IMG/VR virus record: IMGVR_UViG_3300005563_000030
Coordinates: 32,001-96,000 of that record
Length of the DNA: 64,000 nucleotides
DNA from: a virus
Reading direction: 5' to 3' (one strand)
Position numbers and translations under genes: made by a program. Every line of letters begins with the position of its first letter. The stretch's first letter is position 1. Of the stretch, positions 6,001 through 50,612 are shown piece by piece. A model generated the notes under the pieces. The model did not search any database and was not told where the DNA came from. It saw nothing but the letters and a program-made list of their open reading frames with translations.

Positions 6001-9000
6001 AGGTTCGTGAACGTCAAGACGTAATGCTCCAATAGGACTTAATGTAAGGTCATAAAACACCTTACCGTTTGGATCAGAGATAAACAGTTTATTATTTAAT
6101 TCTTCGTTATATTGTTTATTATAGTTTTTAGCTTCATCTGTAGGAAGTTTGTAATAGATTTCTCTATCCCCAATTAATAACTTCAGAGTAGACTCTTCTT
6201 TAGTAGACTCAATAAAGTTGGCATTAGCTGATTCTAAAGATCGTGCTTTTAATGAGTCAAGCATTTCATCTTTAGACTGTGTGGTCATCGTAGTTGGGTG
6301 AAGAGCTACTGGTTGAATAGTTCCATCTGGTTTCATAACCAGTCCAATATAACGACTATTTACATCTAGTAGTTTCTGGGCAGAAGAGGCTAGGTAGTCT
6401 AAAATCATTCTATCGTCAGCTCCCGGTGTTCTATAGAAATTAGCACCATATAAAGGAGTCATGAAGTCTGTTCTTTCTCTCACCATAGTATCTTCAACAA
6501 GACGTTTTGGTATAGAGATAATTACAGTAGTGTTGATAGGATTACCATTGGCTACAGGTAAAGAAACTGTATTATGCTTCACTTGACTATAGAAGCGAGG
6601 AGCTTGACCTCTTTCTAATAAGTCTAGTTCACCATATGTAATTACAGTGTCTACAAGTTCATTAAGTTCTTGTGGTGTAAGTGTGTATTCCTGAAGATTA
6701 TTATTTCTAAACTTCAGAGCTAAGTAATTTGTAAAAGCTACTTGTTTATTAAACTCATCTACGTCAGCCGCATGTTGAGCAGCAGGTTTACCTGTAAATT
6801 GTTGATACTGTTCAGGAGTAAGTCTGTCAATTGTAACAAAGTTATTTCCTACTTTGAATAGTAAGCGTTTAGGATAAGCAACCTTACCTATTTCTGCGCC
6901 ATTATGTGATACAGACAAGTCAATAGGAGCCCTTGACGCATACATTCCGGGGAATCCAGGTATTTGTGTGAATGATTGATCTGCTTGTTGTCTATTATAA
7001 GCCTCTTGATAATTTGGAGCAAGAGGTCTCACGGTAACACTAAGATTTTGTACTACTTGGTCTTTATTACCAGAGAATATAGCATCATTAAATGTACCTT
7101 TAAGGTCAGGAGCGACCCATACTTTACCCATAAAGTCACTGGTTCTAAACTCACTCTGTTCATTTACAGGTGGTGGAGTATTAGGTGTAACTGGTGGACC
7201 ACCAGCTTGGTTATCTGGTTGTTCTGGAGTATTTGGACTAGGTGTTTTCTGATTAGAAGTAGAGCCGACGCCTTCTAAGAAAGTCTTAGCTTGGTCAACT
7301 ACAGTATTAGGAACATAGAATTTCTTACCAGAAAGAGAAGTAACCATTGCATAGTCTTTTAAGTCTATGTTTGGATCTTCTAATTTTAGTTCGTCTATAG
7401 TTTGAAATCCTAATACTTGTAAACTGTCATCATCAAGTTTTGATTTACCTTCGATGGCAGCCATGAAATATCCTACTAGTCTAGCTCTTTCACTATCATC
7501 TTCAACAGGTTTATTTTCAACAAATCCTTCCTGTCCTTGTTGAACTGTTGGAGCTTGTGTTGCAGGATTTTGTTGTGTGTTTGTATTATTAGCTTGAGGC
7601 TGATTTGTTGTTTGTTGACCAGCATTTGCTTGTGAAGTATTGAAAGCAGCTTGTTGTTGAGCAGCTTGACCTTGTGTTTGGTCAGGAGCTAACTGAACAG
7701 GAGTTTCAATAGCTTCTTTTCTAGCTTTCTCAATAGCTTCAAATTGTTCTTTAAACCCACCTTTTGTAGTAAGACGAGCATATCTATCAATAGCTACGTT
7801 GTTTCTCATACCTAACTGCCAAATATCTTTAGCATATCCTTTCAATTCAGATACAAGATCAGGATGCATTAATTGATCTATGGTGATAGTGTCATCACCC
7901 ATATTCTTATAGAATGCTAATTTGTTTCTTCCTATTTCTGAATAGAAGTTAGCAACAAGCATATGGTATTTAGCATTTTGAAGCTTTTCATCCTTCTCAT
8001 TCAGAACATCTTCAATTTGGTCATGTTTAGCTTGTAATGCTTTTATTTTTTCCTTATTTGTTTCCGGTGTAGCCCTCAACTGAGAAGTTAGGAATTCAGC
8101 TTTTTCATATATTTCAGGAGAAATATTCTTATTCTGACTAAACTTACGTTTTATATCAGACATTTCTTCTTTAATAGACTTTACTTGGTCAGGTGTAAGC
8201 TGAGTTTTAGCTAATGAGTTTAGTATAGCTAATTGCTCTTTATACTTCTTTTTAAGCTCTTTTAGTCCATCTTCAGAAACCATCTGAATAGCTTCTTCTA
8301 CAGGAAAACCTATACCACCACGTAATGAAAGTTGCTCTCTAAGAGCTTTAGTACGATTAGCAGAATCTCTTGAAAGTGACATTGTACGAACTAAGTCTTC
8401 CTTAGCTTCTTCGTATGCAGCGTACTTTCCATTAATAATATCTTGTTTTTGTTTTTCTTCTTTGTTCTTGTAGTTACCAGTTCCTTTAAGTGTAAAAGGA
8501 TTAACGAATGTACGAGAAACTCTTTTATGTACATCATTAATGTACTCAGCATTTCTCACCATCGCATCTACATAGTCAGATACAGACTTCTTATTCTCAT
8601 CAGAAGCTGTAATGCCAAATGTTTTTTTGAACTCATCATTATCTAATTTTTTGAGTTCTTGTAATTGTTCCATACGTGTCTCAAACTTATTCTGTTTGAT
8701 ACCACTAATAACGAAACTTACAAACTGGTCATGCTTATAGTTTTTATAAGCAAATACATTACCATCAGCAGCAGCTTTTTGTAGGTCTTTCTGGATAGAA
8801 ATAGCCTCAACGCTTTCGCCATACTTGTTCTCAAATATACCACTAAGTGTATTAGTGTTAAGACCCTCTAATACATTATTAATTTGTTTTTTATAATCTG
8901 GATGTACATCTACGCCTCTTAGTTTGTAGTAAGCTCCTTCTACACCTTTATACATAGCACCACCAAGAAGACCATACACACTATTCTCCCATCCTTCACT

Positions 9001-31621: not shown

Positions 31622-32172
31622 TATTTACAATTTTTATTGCAAATGCCTTCTTTTAATTCATTGATTAGCCTTTGCGCGGTTTGATAGAAGGAGTTAGCTT
31701 TCTTCTCATCTTTCTCTACCACAGCTTGAGCCCCAGTGATACAAGTATGTATTTCTACTAAGCTATACGATTTTATTCTATCTTCTTTGGTACTACAATC
31801 AGTGCTTTCTAATTGTAAGTAAAGATCATTTAGCTCCTTCTCTATCAGAGTGGTTCTAAAGTATTTCTTTACTATATAAGCATTTTCGTATGGACAGATT
31901 TTGTACTTGAAAGTATAAACACCATCTGGAAGATCAACTAGATATTCTTTATTCAGAATTTCTGTAAGTCCAATAGTATTAGAATTAAATGTATTTACTT
32001 TTCTAGCTACAACATTTACCAAGAAGTACTTATTGTAACCGGGAAGGGTAACTTCAAGAAGAGGCTTTTCAGGCTCTCTAAAATAATCAGATGAATCAAT
32101 AAAGACAAGAGTTTTTGGATTCCCCGTAGGGATTATTTCAAAATCCAATATATGTTGTCTAAATCCCTTCAT
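31621..32172 (-). CDS. Putative tail hub/structural protein
   Basis: DLPDGVYTFKY motif; structural-operon position. Confidence 0.5.
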   Translation of the reverse strand: MKGFRQHILDFEIIPTGNPKTLVFIDSSDYFREPEKPLLEVTLPGYNKYFLVNVVARKVNTFNSNTIGLTEILNKEYLVDLPDGVYTFKYKICPYENAYIVKKYFRTTLIEKELNDLYLQLESTDCSTKEDRIKSYSLVEIHTCITGAQAVVEKDEKKANSFYQTAQRLINELKEGICNKNCK

Positions 32173-43687: not shown

Positions 43688-44000
43688 TATTTCTCATTCT
43701 ATGAGGCACATCTCCACCACCACGTACTTCTTTTATGGCAGCAGCTTCTTTCTCACGAAGTTTTTCTACTACCTCGCACATAGCAAGGTATTCCTTCATG
43801 GTTTCACGTAGTGATTTTTGAATAGCCTCTTTAGTTTGTACTACAGCGTAATAAGCTCCACCATTTTTAGTTTTCATTAATTCCTTACGATCCTCTACTT
43901 CATTGTAGGGGTTATCTAGTAAGTATTGTTTCCAGCGAGCTAATTGTTCTTCTGCAAGTTCTAGCTCTGCTGATATGTATAAGTTTTTCTTAACAGCCAT
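43674..44000 (-). CDS. Hypothetical protein, candidate terminase small subunit
   Basis: Small helical ORF overlapping the terL start; ends in EVRGG. Confidence 0.4.
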   Translation of the reverse strand: MAVKKNLYISAELELAEEQLARWKQYLLDNPYNEVEDRKELMKTKNGGAYYAVVQTKEAIQKSLRETMKEYLAMCEVVEKLREKEAAAIKEVRGGGDVPHRMRNNAED

Positions 44001-44316
44001 ATGGTTTTACTTCAGTTACGCGATAATATTTAGTATTAAATTTCCTTACTTTGACTATTTTTCCATTATAGTAGTAGTCTTCTACCCAGTTTTTATTTTT
44101 CACAAAAAGTGGATCTGGTTGTTTTGGGAAGATTTGATAGTCTGTATTGATTTCATCTTTTTCAATTTCCATATCTTCTATATCTGAATAGAAGGAAGGA
44201 TCTTCAAGACGCATATCGTATTCGATAGCAAACTTCCCAATAGCCATCATAAACCCAGCATAGATAAAGTCATTATCCGTATAACTAGGTTTACACATTT
44301 CATGTATCTCTTCCAT
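43990..44316 (-). CDS. Hypothetical protein
   Basis: ORF track; overlaps the next gene start. Confidence 0.5.
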   Translation of the reverse strand: MEEIHEMCKPSYTDNDFIYAGFMMAIGKFAIEYDMRLEDPSFYSDIEDMEIEKDEINTDYQIFPKQPDPLFVKNKNWVEDYYYNGKIVKVRKFNTKYYRVTEVKPYGC

Positions 44317-44329
44317 TGGTTTTTATTTG

Positions 44330-44401
44330 AGCACATAGGAAGAATCGAACTTCCGCATAACTGTTTTGCAGACAGCGACCTTACCACTTGGCTATACGTG
44401 C
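44330..44401 (-). tRNA. trnC: tRNA-Cys(GCA)
   Basis: Cloverleaf; CTGT-CTGCAAA-ACAG anticodon arm; GTTCGATT T-loop. Confidence 0.85.
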
Positions 44402-44760
44402 TTATTTACGAATAGCTTTTTCTTAATAACATAATCGAATATCTTCTCATTTATAAATCCTGATAAGAAGGCTCTAGCTTCTCCATCATTTACATCCTTA
44501 TCTTCTAATATGTAATCTACTAAATGAGAAATTTCATGAGTTATTATATTTACATTTAAACTCTCTTCTGAAAAGAAGACATAGTAGGTATGAAAATTAT
44601 TTGGATTTATAGCCATTCCATGAAGATCATGGTCATCTTCTATATTAAATTCCCATTTCTCTCGCTTACTATATGAGTTTATCTTCTTACGAATGTCTTT
44701 GTCTATTATGACAATACACTTAAGTTGATAAACTTCTATCGGAATCACTAGTCTGAGCAT
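44392..44760 (-). CDS. Small zincin-like HExxH protein
   Basis: IITHEISH...GEARA; stop codon lies inside tRNA-Cys. Confidence 0.6.
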   Translation of the reverse strand: MLRLVIPIEVYQLKCIVIIDKDIRKKINSYSKREKWEFNIEDDHDLHGMAINPNNFHTYYVFFSEESLNVNIITHEISHLVDYILEDKDVNDGEARAFLSGFINEKIFDYVIKKKLFVNKHV

Positions 44761-44914
44761 CTTCTGATAAGTCTAAGATCATGAATTTATAACTTTCCAA
44801 AGGATACTTTGATTCTTCTTTAGGTTCACCAAATATAGCCTTTCTTGATTCAGGACTCATAAGTTCATAGAATAACCCCATAATTGCAGCCTGATCGTAT
44901 ATCTCTTCTTCCAT
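44720..44914 (-). CDS. Hypothetical protein
   Basis: ORF track. Confidence 0.4.
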   Translation of the reverse strand: MEEEIYDQAAIMGLFYELMSPESRKAIFGEPKEESKYPLESYKFMILDLSEDAQTSDSDRSLST

Positions 44915-44927
44915 GTAATTAGTTAAG

Positions 44928-45001
44928 TTGCGGGAGCGGGGATCGAACCCGCGTCATTTAGCTTATGAGACTAAGCTGGAACCTCTCCAGTCCACCCCGC
45001 A
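44928..45001 (-). tRNA. trnM: tRNA-Met(CAT)
   Basis: TTAGT-CTCATAA-GCTAA arm; GGTTCGATCC T-arm. Confidence 0.8.
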
Positions 45002-45005
45002 ATTT

Positions 45006-45218
45006 TTAATCTTCTAAATATTCTCTCCAAGTCTTCGGTTTGTATCTATCTATTGCTTCATCATTACGTTTCTTGAACTCCTCAGCAGAAATAATACCTA
45101 GCCGAAATCCCCATTCAACATTAGTGAGATACATATCTCTCATTAACATCTTCTCTTTGTTCTTTATGTGTGCTTGGGTCATCATAAAGAGTATATCGTA
45201 CTCCACTTTCTTTTCCAA
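45006..45218 (-). CDS. Hypothetical protein
   Basis: ORF track. Confidence 0.45.
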   Translation of the reverse strand: MEKKVEYDILFMMTQAHIKNKEKMLMRDMYLTNVEWGFRLGIISAEEFKKRNDEAIDRYKPKTWREYLED

Positions 45219-45363
45219 TTTCTTCTTGTAACATCATTTCTAAGAACCTCATTGCGTCATTGTACCTCGCAGTGAGTTGTTCAATAATATAATTCTCAGA
45301 CATACCTAAAGCTCTCCAATTATCAATTTCGTCTTGTAGGTAGTGGTTAACAATATTATTCAT
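45121..45363 (-). CDS. Hypothetical protein
   Basis: ORF track. Confidence 0.4.
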   Translation of the reverse strand: MNNIVNHYLQDEIDNWRALGMSENYIIEQLTARYNDAMRFLEMMLQEEIGKESGVRYTLYDDPSTHKEQREDVNERYVSH

Positions 45364-45577
45364 CTTCCTTAATATTATCTACTAACTCGTTCTCTAATTC
45401 ATCGCGATATTTCTCAAACTTCCTCAAAAGCTCTGTATCACTCCAGCCGTAACATCCTGTTTGTGGGCGAAGAATATGTACCATATGTTGCGCAATGGTA
45501 TACTGAGGAAACAATTCCACGATCTCTGCAAAGTTATGGAATATCTGTGACTTTGTCTGAATCTGTTTGTTGCTCAT
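45356..45577 (-). CDS. Hypothetical protein
   Basis: ORF track. Confidence 0.5.
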   Translation of the reverse strand: MSNKQIQTKSQIFHNFAEIVELFPQYTIAQHMVHILRPQTGCYGWSDTELLRKFEKYRDELENELVDNIKEDE

Positions 45578-45989
45578 TTTCTTGGTTTTTAAATGCGAAC
45601 CATTTAGGTTCCAGTGTTATATTGTTTTTTGTGTTGTACTCTTTTACGTTTGGTTTTGCACATCCGCATTCTGTTCCCGGATTGCAACATGATAATCCAC
45701 AATCTGATGATAATGATGATGTTTTTCTATTAATTGAACATCCACACATAACGCAATGCTCATCAATTCTGTTTGTTATATACCCATCACTAACTGCATT
45801 CGAGCTGCTGAACGGGCACGTCGAGCATATCAGTCTTCTCCTCACTATCTCCTGTTGTTCTTCCTCTGGTAACATCCCCAACTCGTTCTTCACTTGTGTT
45901 ATTGTCGCTTCCAAGATTGCTGGTGCGTTGCTCACTATTGTCGGCAGCAACGTCACGTACTCTACTAATCCTTTTAGTGTAATTTTCAT
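45534..45989 (-). CDS. Cys-rich putative zinc-binding protein
   Basis: RRLICSTCPF...HCVMCGC motifs. Confidence 0.55.
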   Translation of the reverse strand: MKITLKGLVEYVTLLPTIVSNAPAILEATITQVKNELGMLPEEEQQEIVRRRLICSTCPFSSSNAVSDGYITNRIDEHCVMCGCSINRKTSSLSSDCGLSCCNPGTECGCAKPNVKEYNTKNNITLEPKWFAFKNQENEQQTDSDKVTDIP

Positions 45990-46323
45990 AGAACTGTTTA
46001 GCTAATATATTTCTTTGTTTAAGAGCTTTTCTTAGCTTATCATAGTTTAATTCCAGAAGCAATTCAGTTGTTGATTGCTTATATCTGGTAGATTTTCGGA
46101 TATTCCTTATCTTTCTAATAAGAGTAATAATCATCTGGTCTACTTTACGCTTAGAAACTGTTATAGTTCCAATATGCTTAATAGAAACAGATGTATAGTC
46201 CATAGATGATAGAGCAGCTCTCACGCCAACCTTCCAGAAAAAAGCATTTACATCTTCTACAAGGTCAGGATCAAGGTTATTCTCTCTAGCTACCAACTTA
46301 GAAACTATATGAATATCCTTCAT
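45790..46323 (-). CDS. HU/IHF-like protein
   Basis: Helix-helix followed by VSIKHIGTITV strand pattern; crAss position near terminase. Confidence 0.5.
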   Translation of the reverse strand: MKDIHIVSKLVARENNLDPDLVEDVNAFFWKVGVRAALSSMDYTSVSIKHIGTITVSKRKVDQMIITLIRKIRNIRKSTRYKQSTTELLLELNYDKLRKALKQRNILAKQFYENYTKRISRVRDVAADNSEQRTSNLGSDNNTSEERVGDVTRGRTTGDSEEKTDMLDVPVQQLECS

Positions 46324-46664
46324 TAATTATTATCAATTTTAATAAGAACTCCCATAGTTGGAGTAAGCCCAAAGTCTAACTCTTTTCTAAGTGAGTATTC
46401 TTTACTGTCTACATTTCTAATCAGCATTCCAAATTTCTTCAACTTAGATAGAGTATTTTTAAGACTATCATCAGACTTTAGTATACCTGCATTTAGTATA
46501 AGGTCTTTAGTTTTTCTATTGATCTTATAAACCATAAAATATGCAAGTACTGTTAACTCTGTGTCTGAGAGCTTAACATTCATAAGTAAACAGAAGATAT
46601 TAATTAATACCTTAGCTTGTTCTACTTTACTATTGGTTTTCTTTTTTATCTTTACTAGTTGCAT
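46323..46664 (-). CDS. Winged-HTH (RepL-like) protein
   Basis: LSDTELTVLAY...SLKNTLSKLKKFGML pattern; ATG 46664 follows the TATATTTG promoter at 46673-46680. Confidence 0.5.
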   Translation of the reverse strand: MQLVKIKKKTNSKVEQAKVLINIFCLLMNVKLSDTELTVLAYFMVYKINRKTKDLILNAGILKSDDSLKNTLSKLKKFGMLIRNVDSKEYSLRKELDFGLTPTMGVLIKIDNN

Positions 46665-46875
46665 ATTCAGTACAAATATAGAGATATTATTGCAATTTAC
46701 CAAATTTATTTTATCTCCATCCCTTCTTCTCCAGAACTTTCTATTAGCTGCTCTCGCGAACAACGAATAGTAGGTGAGTCACTGAGCGTTACACTTCTGC
46801 TGCTCCGCGAAGTACGAAGCTACGAAAAATTTCTGACATTTTCATCAATTTCGTAAACTATTTTTTAAAATAAAT

Positions 46876-46898
46876 AAAAAAGCCCCAATTAAGGGGCT
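46876..46898 (-). terminator. Terminator closing tRNA operon 3
   Basis: AGCCCC-TTAATT-GGGGCT followed by TTTTT. Confidence 0.8.
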
Positions 46899-46902
46899 AT
46901 TG

Positions 46903-46974
46903 CACGGGATGATGGTCTCGAACCACCGACACAGGTTTTGGAGACTAGCATTTTACCAACTAAACTAATCCCGT
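46903..46974 (-). tRNA. trnW: tRNA-Trp(CCA), anticodon stem with two mismatches
   Basis: CTAGT-CTCCAAA-ACCTG; good acceptor, D and T arms. Confidence 0.7.
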
Positions 46975-46978
46975 AGGT

Positions 46979-47070
46979 AGCCTGCGTAATAAGATACTTT
47001 TCGCGTAGTCCCAGGTTTACGCTTGAAGGGTCAGGTAAATCCCACATATCTCCTATACTATTCTCAGGCT
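46979..47070 (-). ncRNA. Rod-shaped ~92-nt non-tRNA RNA inside tRNA operon 3
   Basis: AGCCUG/CAGGCU closing stem, AGAUA/UAUCU, UGUGG/CUACG and UUUAC/GUAAA helices separated by bulges. Confidence 0.45.
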
Positions 47071-47071
47071 C

Positions 47072-47142
47072 TGGGTGAAGTGCAGGATCGAACTGCTTCT
47101 CCAGCTTCACATGCTAGCGCTTTTCCAGTAAGCTATCTTCAC
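47072..47142 (-). tRNA. trnH: tRNA-His(GTG)
   Basis: CTAGC-ATGTGAA-GCTGG arm. Confidence 0.75.
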
Positions 47143-47144
47143 AG

Positions 47145-47215
47145 ATGCTCGTGATCGAATCGGACGACCTTCTCCGAGGTCAAAACTCGGTGTGATACCA
47201 ATATACCAACGAGCA
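47145..47215 (-). tRNA. trnQ: tRNA-Gln(TTG)
   Basis: CCGAG-TTTTGAC-CTCGG arm; atypical T-arm. Confidence 0.7.
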
Positions 47216-47223
47216 TTATATAG

Positions 47224-47296
47224 TGGGGTTCTCTGGTTACGATCCAGATCCTCCAGTTTTTCAGACTGGTGCTTCTACCAAGTTAGCTTGAACTCC
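47224..47296 (-). tRNA. trnF: tRNA-Phe(GAA)
   Basis: CCAGT-CTGAAAA-ACTGG arm. Confidence 0.85.
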
Positions 47297-47301
47297 AAAT
47301 G

Positions 47302-47375
47302 AGCCTGTGGTCGGAGTTGAACCGACAACCTTTCCCTTACAAGGGGACTGCTCCGCCAATTGAGCTACAGCAGGC
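47302..47375 (-). tRNA. trnT: tRNA-Thr(TGT)
   Basis: GTCCC-CTTGTAA-GGGAA arm. Confidence 0.8.
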
Positions 47376-47379
47376 ATTG

Positions 47380-47478
47380 TGCTAATGGGGTACGACTTGA
47401 ACGACAAGCGGAGGTTAATCCCTGATTCCGCGCCGGATAGACAATCCGGTATGTCTGCCAATTTCACCACCCATTAGT
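47380..47478 (-). tRNA. Atypical tRNA-like RNA: GTC (Asp) anticodon, long variable arm, 8-bp acceptor stem
   Basis: CCGGA-TTGTCTA-TCCGG arm; CTAATGGG/CCCATTAG acceptor; GGTGAAATTGGCAGAC D region; GCGGA...TCCGC variable arm. Confidence 0.6.
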
Positions 47479-47481
47479 GTG

Positions 47482-47553
47482 CGGGAACGGAAGGGGTCGA
47501 ACCTTCAACCTACCGGTTAACAGCCGGTTGCTCTACCATTGAGCTACATTCCC
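47482..47553 (-). tRNA. trnN: tRNA-Asn(GTT)
   Basis: ACCGG-CTGTTAA-CCGGT arm. Confidence 0.9.
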
Positions 47554-47605
47554 TGGTCGGCTCCGATTTTTTATACAGAACGTTGCCGAAGTAAACTGTT
47601 GATCG

Positions 47606-47681
47606 CCGACTATCACGGATTTGAACCGAGGATCTCCTCTTAGACAGAGAGGCAGGGACGACCAGACTCCCCTAATAGTCG
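47606..47681 (-). tRNA. trnD: tRNA-Asp(GTC)
   Basis: CCTCT-CTGTCTA-AGAGG arm (U at position 37). Confidence 0.8.
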
Positions 47682-47722
47682 AGGTGAAGGTTCCTTCCTG
47701 GAGTATACCTACAACTATGCAG

Positions 47723-47797
47723 TCAGGGTAGCTGGATTTGAACCAGCGAACACGTGCTTCCAAGGCACGCCCATATAGCCATCTGTGGAACACCCTG
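47723..47797 (-). tRNA. trnP: tRNA-Pro(TGG)
   Basis: CGTGC-CTTGGAA-GCACG arm. Confidence 0.85.
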
Positions 47798-47802
47798 ATA
47801 AT

Positions 47803-47832
47803 AAAAAACCCCCGGTGAAAACCGAGGGAAAC
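47803..47832 (-). terminator. Attenuator terminator of tRNA operon 3
   Basis: CCCTCGGT-TTTC-ACCGGGGG followed by TTTTTT; 5' arm also complementary to leader GATGAGGGAAC. Confidence 0.8.
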
Positions 47833-47858
47833 TTTCAATTATGACAAATTTTCTTGAA

Positions 47859-47945
47859 TTACTTATTTTGGCATAATGTTCCCTCATCGAGATCTTGTTG
47901 ATCCGGTGTGAAATTATTAAACGTATTATGCCAATTGTTAATCAT
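47859..47945 (-). CDS. Leader peptide 3, MINNWHNTFNNFTPDQQDLDEGTLCQNK
   Basis: Translated by hand; lies between promoter TATCTTTG (47950-47957) and the attenuator. Confidence 0.75.
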   Translation of the reverse strand: MINNWHNTFNNFTPDQQDLDEGTLCQNK

Positions 47946-47949
47946 AAAA

Positions 47950-47980
47950 CAAAGATAAGTAAAATATTTGAAACTACCAA
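47950..47980 (-). promoter_or_regulatory. Bacteroidota promoter for tRNA operon 3
   Basis: TTTG about 20 nt upstream of TATCTTTG. Confidence 0.75.
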
Positions 47981-47996
47981 ATATTCTTAAAAGAAG

Positions 47997-48080
47997 TCGA
48001 TGCAGAGAGATTTGAACTCCCATAGCCGAATGGCGACAGTTTTACAGACTGCTGATTTCAACCCACTTACCATTACATCG
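47997..48080 (-). tRNA. trnY: tRNA-Tyr(GTA)
   Basis: GCAGT-CTGTAAA-ACTGT arm; long variable arm. Confidence 0.8.
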
Positions 48081-48149
48081 AGATAGCTGTCTATTCCAGC
48101 TTGTCAAACCCTTTTTATTTCATACTACGTCGCCGAGATACACGACCTG

Positions 48150-48238
48150 CGGAAAGAAGAGGAACCGACCCCCACCCGATTTAACGAGACCTAGTTTTCA
48201 AGACTAGTCGGCGCTCCAATGCACCTGCTTTTCTTTCC
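48150..48238 (-). tRNA. trnS: tRNA-Ser(TGA)
   Basis: CTAGT-CTTGAAA-ACTAG arm; long variable arm; GGA...TCCG acceptor; atypical T-loop. Confidence 0.75.
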
Positions 48239-48242
48239 AGAG

Positions 48243-48328
48243 CGGAGAACAGTGGCCCTGATCCACATACGTTCGATGACGTACCACCTCTTTAGCAGAG
48301 AGGGCATACCCTAGTATGTCTATTCTCC
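48243..48328 (-). tRNA. trnS: tRNA-Ser(GCT)
   Basis: CCTCT-CTGCTAA-AGAGG arm; long variable arm; atypical T-loop. Confidence 0.75.
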
Positions 48329-48333
48329 AAATG

Positions 48334-48407
48334 TACTCCTAGTCAGATTTGAACTGACACTTGACAGATTTTAAGTCTGTTGACTCTCCCTGTTGGTCTA
48401 TAGGAGC
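48334..48407 (-). tRNA. trnL: tRNA-Leu(TAA), short variable arm
   Basis: ACAGA-CTTAAAA-TCTGT arm. Confidence 0.8.
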
Positions 48408-48483
48408 TGGTAGCTACGGTGAGATTTGAACTCACACTAAATAGTTTCTAAGACTATTGCCTCTCCCATTGGGCTACGTAGCC
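48408..48483 (-). tRNA. trnL: tRNA-Leu(TAG), short variable arm, encoded CCA
   Basis: ATAGT-CTTAGAA-ACTAT arm. Confidence 0.8.
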
Positions 48484-48490
48484 ATAAAAT

Positions 48491-48522
48491 AAAAAACCCC
48501 CACTTATGAATAAGCAGGGGGT
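48491..48522 (-). terminator. Attenuator terminator of tRNA operon 2
   Basis: ACCCCCTGCTTA-TTCA-TAAGTGGGGGT followed by TTTTT; 5' arm complementary to leader GCAGGGGG. Confidence 0.8.
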
Positions 48523-48547
48523 AAACTAAAAACGGAAAAAAGTATCT

Positions 48548-48631
48548 TTATATTCCGACAATAAGCCCCCCTGCCACAGGATAACTGAGACTAGATAAAT
48601 AGGAGAGTAAATATTGCTTCACGAATTTCAT
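48548..48631 (-). CDS. Leader peptide 2, MKFVKQYLLSYLSSLSYPVAGGLIVGI
   Basis: Translated by hand; lies between promoter TATCTTCG (48636-48643) and the attenuator. Confidence 0.75.
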   Translation of the reverse strand: MKFVKQYLLSYLSSLSYPVAGGLIVGI

Positions 48632-48635
48632 AACA

Positions 48636-48658
48636 CGAAGATAGGAAAACTTTTTCAA
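48636..48658 (-). promoter_or_regulatory. Bacteroidota-type promoter for tRNA operon 2
   Basis: TATCTTCG (one mismatch to TAnnTTTG) with upstream TTG. Confidence 0.6.
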
Positions 48659-48801
48659 TTTTCCAAATTTTCATTTATTGAATAAGTACGATCACATAAA
48701 TCGCAGTAATAAACTGGTCCTAGATTTTCTCCGAACACTCCAATCTCATCTATAATTATGAATTGTTCATTACATTCAGGACATCTGTTTTCTGATTTCA
48801 T
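48655..48801 (-). CDS. Small zinc-ribbon protein (48 aa)
   Basis: MKSENRCPECNE...YYCDLCD; true start follows tRNA-Ala. Confidence 0.55.
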   Translation of the reverse strand: MKSENRCPECNEQFIIIDEIGVFGENLGPVYYCDLCDRTYSINENLEN

Positions 48802-48803
48802 AG

Positions 48804-48873
48804 TGGACACAGTGGGAATCGAACCCAAAAGTTCTCCTTGCAAGGGAGACTGCCTACCGTTGGCATCTGGCCC
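48804..48873 (-). tRNA. trnA: tRNA-Ala(TGC)
   Basis: TCTCC-CTTGCAA-GGAGA arm; G3:U70. Confidence 0.75.
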
Positions 48874-48878
48874 AGAAG

Positions 48879-48951
48879 TAGGAAGTCTGAGAATCGAACT
48901 CAGGAGTCCACTTTGTAAGAGTGGCATATTAAACCTCTGTATGAACTTCCT
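48879..48951 (-). tRNA. trnV: tRNA-Val(TAC)
   Basis: CCACT-CTTACAA-AGTGG arm. Confidence 0.8.
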
Positions 48952-48954
48952 ATG

Positions 48955-49027
48955 TCGCTGAGGGAAGAGTCGAACTTCCAGTCTTACACGTATCAGGCGT
49001 CTGCGTTAACCATTACGCTACTCAGCG
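48955..49027 (-). tRNA. trnI: tRNA-Ile(GAT)
   Basis: ACGC-CTGATAC-GTGT arm. Confidence 0.8.
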
Positions 49028-49029
49028 GG

Positions 49030-49101
49030 TTGGCTCTAAGGGGGTTGAACCCTTATCCTTCTCGTTATGAGCGAGCTGCTCCACCTTTGAGCTAAGAGCC
49101 G
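49030..49101 (-). tRNA. tRNA with CAT anticodon, probably Ile2 (lysidine)
   Basis: CTCG-CTCATAA-CGAG arm; Ile2-like CTTAGCTCA 5' region; next to tRNA-Ile; leader 1 contains an ATA codon. Confidence 0.7.
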
Positions 49102-49106
49102 ATATG

Positions 49107-49178
49107 TACTCTCGAAGGGTTTCGATCCCTCTTCTACACCTTGAAAGGGTGTCATCCTAGCCACTAGACGACGAGAGC
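49107..49178 (-). tRNA. trnE: tRNA-Glu(TTC)
   Basis: ACACC-CTTTCAA-GGTGT arm. Confidence 0.85.
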
Positions 49179-49227
49179 TGGTGTACAGACTATCACTGAC
49201 CTTGGTAACTGACTTTCACAGATTTTG

Positions 49228-49298
49228 TGCGCTACTGGGGAGTCGAACCCCACCCCTCTGATTGGAAGTCAGATAGACTACCGAAATCCTTGTAACGC
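49228..49298 (-). tRNA. trnG: tRNA-Gly(TCC)
   Basis: TCTGA-CTTCCAA-TCAGA arm. Confidence 0.8.
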
Positions 49299-49305
49299 AT
49301 ATAAG

Positions 49306-49378
49306 AAGAGCTGGAGGGATTCAAACCCCCGACGTTCTGTTTAGAAAACAGACATTCTGTTCCCTGAATTACAGCTCT
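49306..49378 (-). tRNA. trnR: tRNA-Arg(TCT)
   Basis: TCTGT-TTTCTAA-ACAGA arm. Confidence 0.75.
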
Positions 49379-49379
49379 G

Positions 49380-49453
49380 AGGACTAGGAGCGAGTCGAAC
49401 GCTCATGTTCCCGCTTCGTAGGCGGGAGCTCTATCCAGTTAAGCTACCAGTCC
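49380..49453 (-). tRNA. trnR: tRNA-Arg(ACG)
   Basis: CCCGC-CTACGAA-GCGGG arm. Confidence 0.85.
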
Positions 49454-49462
49454 TTATTTATG

Positions 49463-49533
49463 TACCCCCGCACGGTAACGATCCGTGTTCTACTGGTTAA
49501 AAGCCAGTAGCTTCACCTTAAAGCTTCGAGGGT
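49463..49533 (-). tRNA. trnK: tRNA-Lys(TTT)
   Basis: ACTGG-CTTTTAA-CCAGT arm. Confidence 0.8.
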
Positions 49534-49535
49534 AT

Positions 49536-49576
49536 AAAAACCAAAACCCCCAAGCTTCTTTAAGGCTCAGGGGTTC
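49536..49576 (-). terminator. Attenuator terminator of tRNA operon 1
   Basis: CCCCTGAGC...GCTTGGGGG followed by TTTTGGTTTTT; 5' arm GAACCCCTGAGCC complementary to leader GGCTCAGGTGGTTC. Confidence 0.8.
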
Positions 49577-49604
49577 GATGTTATGACACACATTAATTAA
49601 GTCA

Positions 49605-49682
49605 TTAGCAAATAGAACCACCTGAGCCACATTTGACAATGCGCTCTGCTCCTCTACCCGCTATAATGACTAATAAACTCAT
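49605..49682 (-). CDS. Leader peptide 1, MSLLVIIAGRGAERIVKCGSGGSIC
   Basis: Translated by hand; lies between promoter TATATTTG (49700-49707) and the attenuator. Confidence 0.75.
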   Translation of the reverse strand: MSLLVIIAGRGAERIVKCGSGGSIC

Positions 49683-49699
49683 TTCTTTAAATTATAATA

Positions 49700-49724
49700 C
49701 AAATATACGAAAACTTTTTTACAA
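49700..49724 (-). promoter_or_regulatory. Bacteroidota promoter for tRNA operon 1
   Basis: TATATTTG with upstream TTG. Confidence 0.7.
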
Positions 49725-50117
49725 TTCCAAATCTTCTTCATCACCTTCTATACTTTCGTCTTCAGGAATGTCATCTTCATAATCCAAAGGTGTGCAATCC
49801 ATAATCTGTACACCCATTTGTTCCATATACAATTCCATGAAATCTGAGAAACCTGCTTTTACTATTAAAGAACTCTCAGCCTTTCTGAAATGAATTGTGA
49901 CATGATCCTTTTCTTTAGCTCTATTAAAGTGATGAATATCTTTTAAATCAAATACTACAGGACCATATTCATGCACAATATCCATCATAATCATGCTATC
50001 TTCTGGACCTTCATCTCCATTAATGAGACGGTTTAATTCTGCTTCTTCCCGGTTAGCTTGACTATTACGAGGAGCAAGCTCCGACCATCTCGCTAACATT
50101 TTTACAATTGTACTCAT
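49719..50117 (-). CDS. Hypothetical protein with acidic C-terminus
   Basis: ORF track. Confidence 0.55.
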   Translation of the reverse strand: MSTIVKMLARWSELAPRNSQANREEAELNRLINGDEGPEDSMIMMDIVHEYGPVVFDLKDIHHFNRAKEKDHVTIHFRKAESSLIVKAGFSDFMELYMEQMGVQIMDCTPLDYEDDIPEDESIEGDEEDLEL

Positions 50118-50314
50118 TTTTCTAAGTTTAATATTTTTGAAAGATCACCATCTGTTTTCTCTATAATCTCAATTAATGTATTAATATTTGATGAAGAAAT
50201 AGGCTCTTTCTTTCCATTAAAGTAATCGAGGTAATCCTCTCTAGTAAACGCACACCATTTATGGGTGTATATATTATAGTGGAATAACCACTTATAAAGG
50301 TTTGTATTATTCAT
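50114..50314 (-). CDS. Hypothetical protein (start uncertain; shorter than ORF-track call)
   Basis: WLFHYNIYTHKWCAF core; the upstream part of the ORF looks non-coding. Confidence 0.45.
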   Translation of the reverse strand: MNNTNLYKWLFHYNIYTHKWCAFTREDYLDYFNGKKEPISSSNINTLIEIIEKTDGDLSKILNLEK

Positions 50315-50612
50315 ATTTTGCTTATTCATATGATATTCAAGTAGTTCTAAAGACTTTCTATAAATATTGTAATTCATATACAAATGTACACAGAATAGTT
50401 GAAAACTCCAAATAAAAAAGGAAGTATTTCTACTTCCTACTGTACTATTAATAAATACATATCTTTTACACACTGTTCAGTGAGGGTGAATGGGTGGCAA
50501 TCCCCCACTCTAGTAAGTCTAAATAGCTTTCTCTCTTTGTCATAATCCTGTATTAGATAGTGTGTGTAATTGTCATCAATTACTACATCATTAATTCCTG
50601 CCTTTAGTTCAT

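Follow-up and report, generated by a model that had tools for sequence, protein, structure and literature searches.

The DNA examined here, called the window throughout, is a 64,000-nucleotide (nt) stretch (positions 32,001 to 96,000) of IMG/VR virus record IMGVR_UViG_3300005563_000030, a 125-kb record of an uncultured large phage. The window contains 20 transfer RNA (tRNA) genes supported by Rfam, all within 44330-49533. Eighteen of these, together with four genes called by ARAGORN only (Ser gct, Ser tga and two Asp), form three blocks at 46902-49533, and the remaining two, tRNA-Cys and a probable tRNA-Met, stand singly further downstream. Each of the three blocks sits behind a unit composed of a short leader open reading frame (ORF) and a terminator. 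Unit 3, the subject of this analysis, precedes a block of nine genes in the order Pro(tgg), Asp(gtc), Asn(gtt), a 96-nt Asp-like gene, Thr(tgt), Phe(gaa), Gln(ttg), His(gtg) and Trp(cca), of which Pro, Asn, Thr, Phe, Gln, His and Trp were called by both ARAGORN and Rfam. An earlier note, made from the letters of the window alone, had read unit 3 as a leader-peptide attenuator whose codons match the amino acids of this tRNA operon.

Unit 3 occupies 47981-47803 on the minus strand and consists of a promoter, a 28-codon ORF and an intrinsic terminator (Table 1). Every element described in the earlier note could be located in the sequence, namely the promoter box, the ORF, the leader segment GATGAGGGAAC (47888-47878, minus strand), the terminator and its T6 tract. 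The leader ATG does lie 4 nt past TATCTTTG, the gap being TTTT. At the DNA level the terminator reads CCCTCGGT-TTTC-ACCGGGGG (47828-47809), with 8 pairs of which 6 are G-C, and is followed by T6 at 47808-47803; tRNA-Pro begins at 47797, 5 nt past the terminator end, and no terminator-like sites are listed within the nine-gene block. Extension of the ORF upstream to an ATG at 48023 was considered and rejected, as the start would then fall within tRNA-Tyr, upstream of the promoter. The leader peptides of the three window units gave no Pfam or PHROG family match at E ≤ 1.

Table 1. Positions of the parts of unit 3, of the tRNA block behind it and of the two sister units
Feature	Position	Strand	Basis or detail
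-33 element TTTG of promoter P3	47978..47981	minus	pattern match TTTG-N17-22-TAnnTTTG, 47981-47950
-7 box TATCTTTG, Bacteroidota sigma-A type	47950..47957	minus	sequence match; TTTG-N20-TAnnTTTG spacing
Leader ORF MINNWHNTFNNFTPDQQDLDEGTLCQNK, 28 codons + stop	47859..47945	minus	ATG 47945-47943, stop 47861-47859
Putative sensor run, codons 3-18 (N5 F2 T2 Q2 D2 W H P)	47892..47939	minus	set-limited run
Region 1, UUGGCAUAAU, Trp-His-Asn codons, 5' strand of predicted 1:2 hairpin	47925..47934	minus	10-bp perfect complement to 47877-47868
Region 2, GAGGGAAC-AUUAUGCCAA, codons 21-26, predicted alternative partner of region 1 or region 3	47868..47885	minus	folding, duplex energy
Region 3, CAUAAU...GUUUCCCUC, predicted antiterminator 3' strand, sharing bases with terminator 5' arm	47824..47843	minus	masked folding
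Intrinsic terminator CCCUCGGU, loop UUUC, ACCGGGGG, then U6	47803..47828	minus	-12.6 kcal/mol
Nine-gene tRNA block, putatively regulated	46902..47797	minus	ARAGORN + Rfam; Asp calls ARAGORN only
Operon-closing terminator 3' of tRNA-Trp	46881..46898	minus	terminator listing
Sister unit 1	49534..49731	minus	promoter 49731-49700; ORF 49682-49605; terminator ~49576-49544
Sister unit 2	48484..48643	minus	TATCTTCG, 4 nt, ORF 48631-48548; terminator 48520-48497

The codon content of the leader was compared with the tRNAs encoded behind it. As the earlier note had pointed out, codons 3-18 (47939-47892) are confined to D, F, H, N, P, Q, T and W, and all eight amino acids are present, Trp and His included. 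These eight make up 36.4% of residues across the window's long ORFs, which gives by simple arithmetic an expected frequency of 0.364^16, or ~1e-7 per position and ~0.01 in the whole window. A six-frame scan of the 64 kb gave 90 runs of at least 6 residues limited to this set; the 16-codon run is the longest (the next has 11 codons) and no other contains all eight amino acids. Under strict wobble rules the downstream anticodons can read each of the 16 codons, and only 1 in 20,000 random eight-amino-acid sets scored equally on the unit 3 peptide. The sister leaders behave similarly: over six frames, the Leu/Ser/Tyr run of unit 2 ranks first in length among runs of its kind and the run of unit 1 second, and both Arg codon families (AGA, CGC) occur in the unit 1 leader, with both Arg tRNAs downstream. 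A relaxed-threshold 'tRNA-Leu(caa)' call overlapping leader ORF 1, a probable leader-hairpin artefact, was removed from the tRNA sets before the leaders were scored against them.

Relatives were sought with the large terminase subunit (TerL), whose scan against viral contigs returned a single relative, L002, at 64% identity. A second scan with an alignment of the window and L002 TerL sequences returned 50 loci in all, L002 counted again. Within the fetched stretches, eight new loci (L008, L013, L015, L016, L034, L035, L037 and L039) carry parts of arrays of at least three tRNA genes, and a ninth, L038, carries two adjacent tRNAs and a separate Cys. The nearest cultured phages by protein search were Leptolyngbya phage Lbo-JY46 (45% identity) and the Cellulophaga phages phi4:1 and phi17:2 (~29%). 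Five large-contig relatives have only 0 or 1 tRNA each, indicating that the array and its leaders are present in only part of the clade. Other routes added little: a DNA search of the tRNA array against the phage collection gave scattered tRNA-to-tRNA matches and no close relative, and a search by way of the 132-residue upstream protein gave none. The pattern ATGATTNNNAATTGGCATAAT occurred in five stretches of viral contigs, one of them the contig of L002. The other four, which have no adjoining tRNA array or comparable leader ORF and of which three are stopped within 8-12 codons, were set aside as chance matches, and the pattern revealed no further close homologues of the unit 3 leader in viral contigs beyond L002.

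A set of 21 leader units was compiled from 11 phage records, those of the cultured phages phi4:1 and Lbo-JY46 among them, with tRNA sets called by ARAGORN at 85-90% of its default thresholds. L016 and L035 were left out as near-duplicates of L015 and L034, and L008, which starts inside its array, gave no unit. The grouping of tRNAs into blocks differs between these phages, and each leader peptide changes with its own block (Table 2), such that Arg, Leu, Tyr, Cys, Ala, Gly, Glu, Met, Lys, Ile and Val residues move to the leader of whichever block holds those tRNAs. The longest set-limited run covers the whole of its own set (Met aside) in 17 of the 21 units. Summed over cognate pairs of leader and block, the surprise was 388.9 bits as compared to 132.0 ± 24.8 for permuted pairs (maximum 261.6), and none of 100,000 permutations reached the cognate value; for the first 15 units the corresponding values were 282.9 and 106.7 ± 23.5. 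Eight units combine one Arg tRNA with an Arg codon in the run, and codon and anticodon agree in every one of them (CGN/acg in 5, AGA/tct in 3), which points to the tRNA species being sensed and not the amino acids alone. Across phages it is leader composition that tracks the tRNA set; leader sequence does not. The window and L002 leaders, for example, share only the set-limited run, and their C-terminal halves are unrelated (LDEGTLCQNK versus IVGRGYIISR). Two of the phi4:1 leaders are already listed in that phage's annotation, as the hypothetical proteins gp075 and gp076.

Table 2. Leader runs and the tRNA sets behind them in the sister units and in relatives
Source	Set-limited run	tRNA set	Full leader
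Window, sister unit 1	VIIAGRGAERIVK	Lys, Arg(acg), Arg(tct), Gly, Glu, Met, Ile, Val, Ala	MSLLVIIAGRGAERIVKCGSGGSIC
Window, sister unit 2	YLLSYLSSLSY	Leu, Leu, Ser, Ser, Tyr	MKFVKQYLLSYLSSLSYPVAGGLIVGI
L002	QNWHNNTFNFQPDT	same tRNA set as window unit 3	
L013	YRPQQLLQ	Pro Gln His Arg(acg) Leu Tyr	
L013	RNNWFNNAAAFTTTDCG	Ala Gly Asp Asn Trp Thr Arg(tct) Phe Cys	
L015	MMNNWFNIIDTAFATRNCGKVGI	block of 14 tRNAs, 13 amino acids	
L037	FQHTRFWFTQPT	Pro Thr Phe Gln Gln His Arg(acg) Trp	
Lbo-JY46	TRQHTQFWFPT	Pro Thr Phe Gln His Arg Trp	
phi4:1	QRLHLQELEQP	Pro Glu Gln His Leu Leu Arg	
phi4:1	TKTGITVIDKTKGARA	Ala Lys Ile Gly Met Asp Thr Val Arg(tct) Met	
phi4:1	YNNSNWSFSY	Tyr Ser Ser Asn Trp Phe	

The pairing between leader and terminator that the earlier note had described is real: GAGGGAAC and GUUUCCCUC form 8 pairs at -12.0 kcal/mol, although taken alone this is only modestly above chance, since 22 of 500 shuffles equal it in both energy and pairing of the arm. 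The specificity is clearer across units. Over 15 of them, the summed duplex energy between the 3' part of each ORF and its own terminator 5' arm is -235.7, as compared to -149.5 ± 11.4 for permuted combinations (minimum -206.3), with 0 of 100,000 permutations reaching the cognate sum. The unit 3 ORF on its own has a minimum free energy of -18.8 (z = -3.5; reached by 2 of 500 shuffles). The shuffles used for the folding of unit 3 preserve mononucleotide but not dinucleotide content. Since the terminator always wins when the full-length RNA is folded at equilibrium, the two states are inseparable there, and folding was therefore modelled on nascent, truncated transcripts carrying ribosome masks. 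For nascent unit 3 RNA extending to the terminator loop and free of ribosomes, the model predicts a 1:2 hairpin (UUGGCAUAAU:AUUAUGCCAA) together with a GUUU:GAAC pairing, at -20.9 kcal/mol, and none of the 8 terminator-arm bases is paired. With the ribosomal A site placed on any of codons 2-16, it predicts a bipartite antiterminator at -12.9 kcal/mol that engages 5 to 8 of the 8 arm bases and in which GAGGGAAC and AUUAUG pair with CAUAAU and GUUUCCCUC. A ribosome on codons 17-27 covers region 2 and leaves the terminator arm free. The predicted bipartite antiterminator and 10-bp 1:2 hairpin, along with the prediction that transcription starts at the A of the ATG, refine the scheme of the earlier note.

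The placement of these elements recurs in the other units. A G+C-rich hairpin followed by a U-tract is found in all 21, beginning 13-43 nt after the leader stop codon and ending 3-13 nt before the first tRNA. The latter interval is too short to hold a promoter of the tRNAs' own, and transcription would reach them only by read-through. In 17 of the 21 units, an automatic rule places the last stall that permits antitermination no more than 3 codons from where the run ends.

The promoter of unit 3 was identified by consensus. The pattern TTTG-N17-22-TAnnTTTG has 11 matches in the window, where shuffles give 2.8 ± 1.6. Nine of these matches are on the minus strand, which is the coding strand, and those ahead of units 1 and 3 are among them. 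When the upstream box was searched for across units, accepting TAnnTTTG and the one-base variants TAnnTTCG and TAnnTTTC, a -7 box was found at most 32 nt upstream of the start codon in 13 of the 21 units; TTTG lies exactly 20 nt further up in 11 of these 13, and the gap between box and start codon is 4 nt in five units. The accessible portion of a study of Flavobacterium psychrophilum describes TAnnTTTG as the sigma-A -7 box, located at -12 to -5, and reports strong clues of leader-peptide attenuation ahead of amino-acid operons in that organism (PMC9723704). Applied to unit 3, this spacing puts the predicted +1 at 47945, on the A of the leader ATG, and the leader mRNA is thus probably leaderless, its start site being inferred from the box.

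All of the sequence-level features that define a leader-peptide attenuator are present in unit 3. A short ORF lies in the 5' leader behind a promoter, the latter a consensus match only, and its regulatory codons match the genes to be regulated (16/16 codons, 8/8 amino acids). Between the ORF and these genes lies an intrinsic terminator with an 8-bp stem, 6 G-C pairs and U6, 5 nt before tRNA-Pro. A mutually exclusive antiterminator is predicted by masked folding and is backed by the specificity across 15 units, with the modest signal of unit 3 alone already noted, and a predicted 10-bp 1:2 anti-antiterminator (47934-47925 with 47877-47868) takes in regulatory codons. With the leader-tRNA match across 21 units, the fit at the level of anticodons, the complementarity to the terminator arm and the masked folding all in agreement with the earlier note, we consider it likely that unit 3 is a ribosome-mediated transcription attenuator gating the nine-gene tRNA operon.

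In the mechanism proposed, transcription would begin at or beside the AUG and a ribosome would translate the 28-codon leader. Codons 3-18 would act as a multivalent sensor, each being read by a tRNA species that is encoded downstream (Asn, Trp, His, Thr, Phe, Pro, Asp or Gln). If any one of these charged tRNAs were scarce, the ribosome would stall within the run and leave region 2 (GAGGGAAC-AUUAUG) free to pair with region 3 (CAUAAU...GUUUCCCUC); the 5' arm of the terminator would then be occupied, and polymerase would read through into the tRNA genes. If decoding were fast, the ribosome would cover region 2 up to the stop codon, and after its release region 1 would pair with region 2, so that the terminator would form and transcription would end 5 nt before tRNA-Pro. 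In ribosome-free RNA, the hairpin UUGGCAUAAU:AUUAUGCCAA would likewise sequester region 2. We infer the direction of this effect, and likewise its size. The supply of tRNA would thereby come under negative feedback, isoacceptor by isoacceptor, with one loop per block, and the two sister units would act alike on the other two tRNA blocks. The leader thus probably lets the phage make the block 3 tRNAs only when ribosomes run short of them.

Several observations weigh against this reading. Among public sequencing runs, no RNA run was listed as containing the region. The units share common descent, and the 21 are therefore not independent events; the informative part of the co-variation is the shift of residues between leaders as tRNAs shift between blocks. 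The match is also imperfect in places. The L038 leader is of the Pro/Gln/His/Arg/Leu/Ser/Tyr type, yet only Pro, Val and Gly tRNAs lie downstream; the first L002 leader (L002_1) has Val and Ala codons, and no such tRNAs were found there; coverage is partial in L013_A (5/6 amino acids) and JY46_1 (5/9); and the Tyr tRNA of L034 is detected only at a 75% threshold. In the window itself, both Asp calls (47681-47605 and the 96-nt gene at 47476-47381) come from ARAGORN only and were not found by Rfam at E ≤ 1. With regard to structure, the full-length RNA at equilibrium always folds the terminator, meaning that antitermination must be kinetic, as it is in classical attenuators, and the unit 3 antiterminator is, as described above, only modestly better than its shuffles. 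Codons 17 and 18 of the run fall outside the modelled antitermination window, where the assumed footprint is uncertain by about one codon. The geometry rule is missed by four units (L002_2, JY46_1, phi41_1 and L038_A), and on inspection these misses probably reflect the definition of the run or of the contiguous window. In L038, the boundary codon, 17, coincides with the end of the Pro/Gln/His/Arg/Leu/Ser/Tyr-type run. Finally, leaderless mRNAs are put at 5.5% of those analysed in Flavobacterium psychrophilum in the accessible part of that study (PMC9723704).

At L038 6212-6650, the leader MNTFLRPSLSLYSQHLYAGQGNSV, the terminator and the antiterminator are intact, and the array looks to have decayed or rearranged behind a retained leader. 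For the window's tRNA-Asp(gtc) at 47605-47681 (minus strand), which carries U37, a functional gene is suggested by the Asp codons of the unit 3 leader, as the leaders of the Asp-less blocks L037_B and JY46_3 have none.

The alternatives differ in which part of this scheme they give up. It is conceivable but unlikely that decoding is sensed as proposed and that the output is something other than intrinsic termination, such as Rho access, RNase cleavage, or the folding or RNase P processing of the first tRNA, with the hairpin serving mainly as a processing or stability element. The hairpin does end just 3-13 nt before the first tRNA in every unit, and in L013 and L015 a Glu-rich leaderless ORF enters tRNA-Glu where a terminator is altogether lacking, so that phages of this group may have a translation-linked control that does not involve termination. 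Against this, all 21 hairpins have the G+C-rich stem and U-tract of an intrinsic terminator, and the ORFs are specifically complementary to their own terminator 5' arms, which is a requirement of an antiterminator. A reversal of the logic, whereby efficient translation would give read-through and stalling would give termination in a feed-forward or timing device, is very unlikely. Its attraction is that the direction of the effect is read from folding models: thermodynamic treatments of co-transcriptional folding are crude, and the ribosome-free RNA of several units is predicted to fold the antiterminator by default. The masked folds nevertheless have the arm free when the ribosome is beyond the run and the antiterminator formed when it is inside, and the reversed scheme offers no rationale for a run that ends where stalls stop permitting the antiterminator.

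The two remaining alternatives are hardly tenable. The peptide itself could be functional, for example as a small protein acting on tRNAs or synthetases, and some leader peptides of other systems, reportedly including peTrpL, act in trans; the window and L002 leaders nonetheless retain only the run in common, with unrelated C-terminal halves, and it is composition and not sequence that follows the tRNA set. Equally improbable is an unrelated small gene with its own terminator that happens to lie before the tRNAs and matches them by chance or compositional bias, an idea that the shortness of the ORF and its lack of a Pfam or PHROG family would allow, and that is contradicted by the permutations (0/100,000) and by the rank of the run as the longest in six frames; it would also leave the tRNAs promoterless behind a terminator ending 5 nt before tRNA-Pro.

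The Glu-codon-rich ORFs mentioned above lie at L013 5515-5583 (EQEIEGEE) and L015 2584-2664 (EDKTEAEE). Both are probably leaderless and reach the 5' end of tRNA-Glu without a terminator, and their GAG-GAG codons are able to pair with the acceptor 5' strand of tRNA-Glu. They may be translation-sensing devices of another kind, with the folding or processing of the tRNA as their target. Other variations on the leader arrangement were seen among the relatives. In some, the leader is a second cistron (L037 5516-5629 and 6326-6385, L039 185-313): a short ORF follows the promoter, its stop overlaps the leader ATG, and in two cases it encodes a hydrophobic peptide of 37-42 residues. Homing-endonuclease-like genes lie within tRNA blocks, 3' of the leader, at L037 6772-7101 and at 3562-4389 of L052 (the Lbo-JY46 locus), and the leaders of both phages still list the tRNAs flanking both sides of the insertion.

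The tRNA array of the window has further peculiarities. The 96-nt tRNA-like gene (47381-47476, minus strand) has a long variable arm and an anticodon loop, with U37, that ARAGORN reads as GUC (Asp); the syntenic gene of L002 (~6271-6424) has a different anticodon loop. Between tRNA-His and tRNA-Trp, which adjoin each other in L002, the window has a 99-nt spacer (46975-47073, minus strand) that matches neither a promoter nor a terminator and may represent a decayed tRNA. Within the array, between tRNA-Ala and promoter 2, a 48-residue ORF (48658-48801, minus strand) has two CxxC pairs and sub-threshold Pfam zinc-ribbon and zinc-finger matches. Further downstream, the tRNA at 44927-45001 (minus strand), unnamed by ARAGORN and scoring 35.4 bits with Rfam, has the anticodon loop CTCATAA, is syntenic with Met(cat) at L002 9122-9196 and is probably tRNA-Met(CAU). 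Both this gene and tRNA-Cys (44329-44401) stand singly among protein genes, without a leader unit.

The promoter type, together with the cultured relatives (Cellulophaga, Flavobacterium and Bacteroides phages), suggests that the host of the window phage belongs to the Bacteroidota. The nearest cultured relative, Leptolyngbya phage Lbo-JY46, is nevertheless recorded on a cyanobacterium. At 1715-6255 of L052 (PP438436.1), this phage, recorded on Leptolyngbya boryana, has TTTGGTAG-N-TAnnTTTG promoters and leader units like those of the Bacteroidota-type phages, which raises a question over its promoter recognition or its true host.

Beyond unit 3, we think it reasonably likely that phages of this clade carry a tRNA demand sensor, in which a block is transcribed only upon stalling for the isoacceptors that it encodes and exactly the missing tRNAs are replaced. 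This would be the first leader-peptide attenuation of tRNA genes and would be multiplexed over 8 to 13 amino acids. A phage so equipped would gauge decoding speed isoacceptor by isoacceptor and top up only the shortages, and it could thereby detect tRNA depletion, whether through host shut-off, codon mismatch or host anticodon nucleases. Such a sensor would account for the division of phage tRNA arrays into blocks, would provide a testable link between these arrays and tRNA depletion during infection, and would bear on two open questions, the manner and timing of phage tRNA-gene expression and the purpose of phage tRNAs. It would also extend leader-peptide attenuation from amino-acid metabolism to the tRNA pool. 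In practical terms, the leaders predict which tRNAs belong to a block, as with the low-scoring Asp tRNAs of the window and the relaxed-threshold Tyr tRNA of L034, and would be compact natural parts that report on the availability of many tRNAs at once. As the same units are found in cultured Cellulophaga phage phi4:1, the idea is directly testable.

A full-text literature search, in which subscription journals were thinly covered, yielded no description of attenuation, or of leader peptides, ahead of tRNA genes or of the tRNA arrays of phages. A parallel for a leaderless sensor comes from mycobacteria, in which leaderless polycysteine short ORFs are cysteine-responsive attenuators, according to the accessible part of a preprint (bioRxiv 10.1101/834739). 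As described there, these ORFs resemble unit 3 in being leaderless short first cistrons whose codon content senses amino-acid or tRNA supply; unlike unit 3, they respond to a single amino acid, precede protein-coding operons and belong to a different phylum. T-box riboswitches (RF00230) also sense tRNA status and choose between terminator and antiterminator, but they bind the uncharged tRNA directly and need no ORF, and unit 3 has nothing like a specifier loop. A cmscan of 44000-50400 at E ≤ 1 returned no match to the T-box family or to the Rfam amino-acid leader families (Thr_leader, His_leader, Trp_leader, Leu_leader and others); it returned tRNA-clan matches, the weakest being tRNA-Sec, and a few sub-threshold matches to unrelated families (Plastid-ycf2, SpF41 sRNA and Cripavirus IRES).

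In overall design, unit 3 is closest to the multivalent attenuators of enterobacteria, among them thrL, whose leader has Thr and Ile codons, and ilvL of ilvGMEDA, with Ile, Leu and Val codons. Both types share a short ORF spanning several amino acids, alternative 1:2, 2:3 and 3:4 hairpins, a terminator before the genes, and a stall that favours (in unit 3, is predicted to favour) the antiterminator. They differ in that the genes behind unit 3 are tRNAs and not biosynthetic enzymes, that the element is phage-borne and that its mRNA is probably leaderless. The phage sensor would also read eight amino acids (up to 13 in L015_B), mostly through one to few codons each rather than long runs of the same codon; in the phage units the codons are matched to isoacceptors, as with Arg AGA versus CGN. 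The pheST attenuator of E. coli, which controls phenylalanyl-tRNA synthetase through the pheM leader, is a further precedent, as it likewise applies leader-peptide attenuation to a gene of the translation apparatus and senses the supply of the charged cognate tRNA. While pheST responds to a single amino acid and has a protein as its target, the phage product that would relieve the stall is the tRNA itself, and the feedback would be direct.

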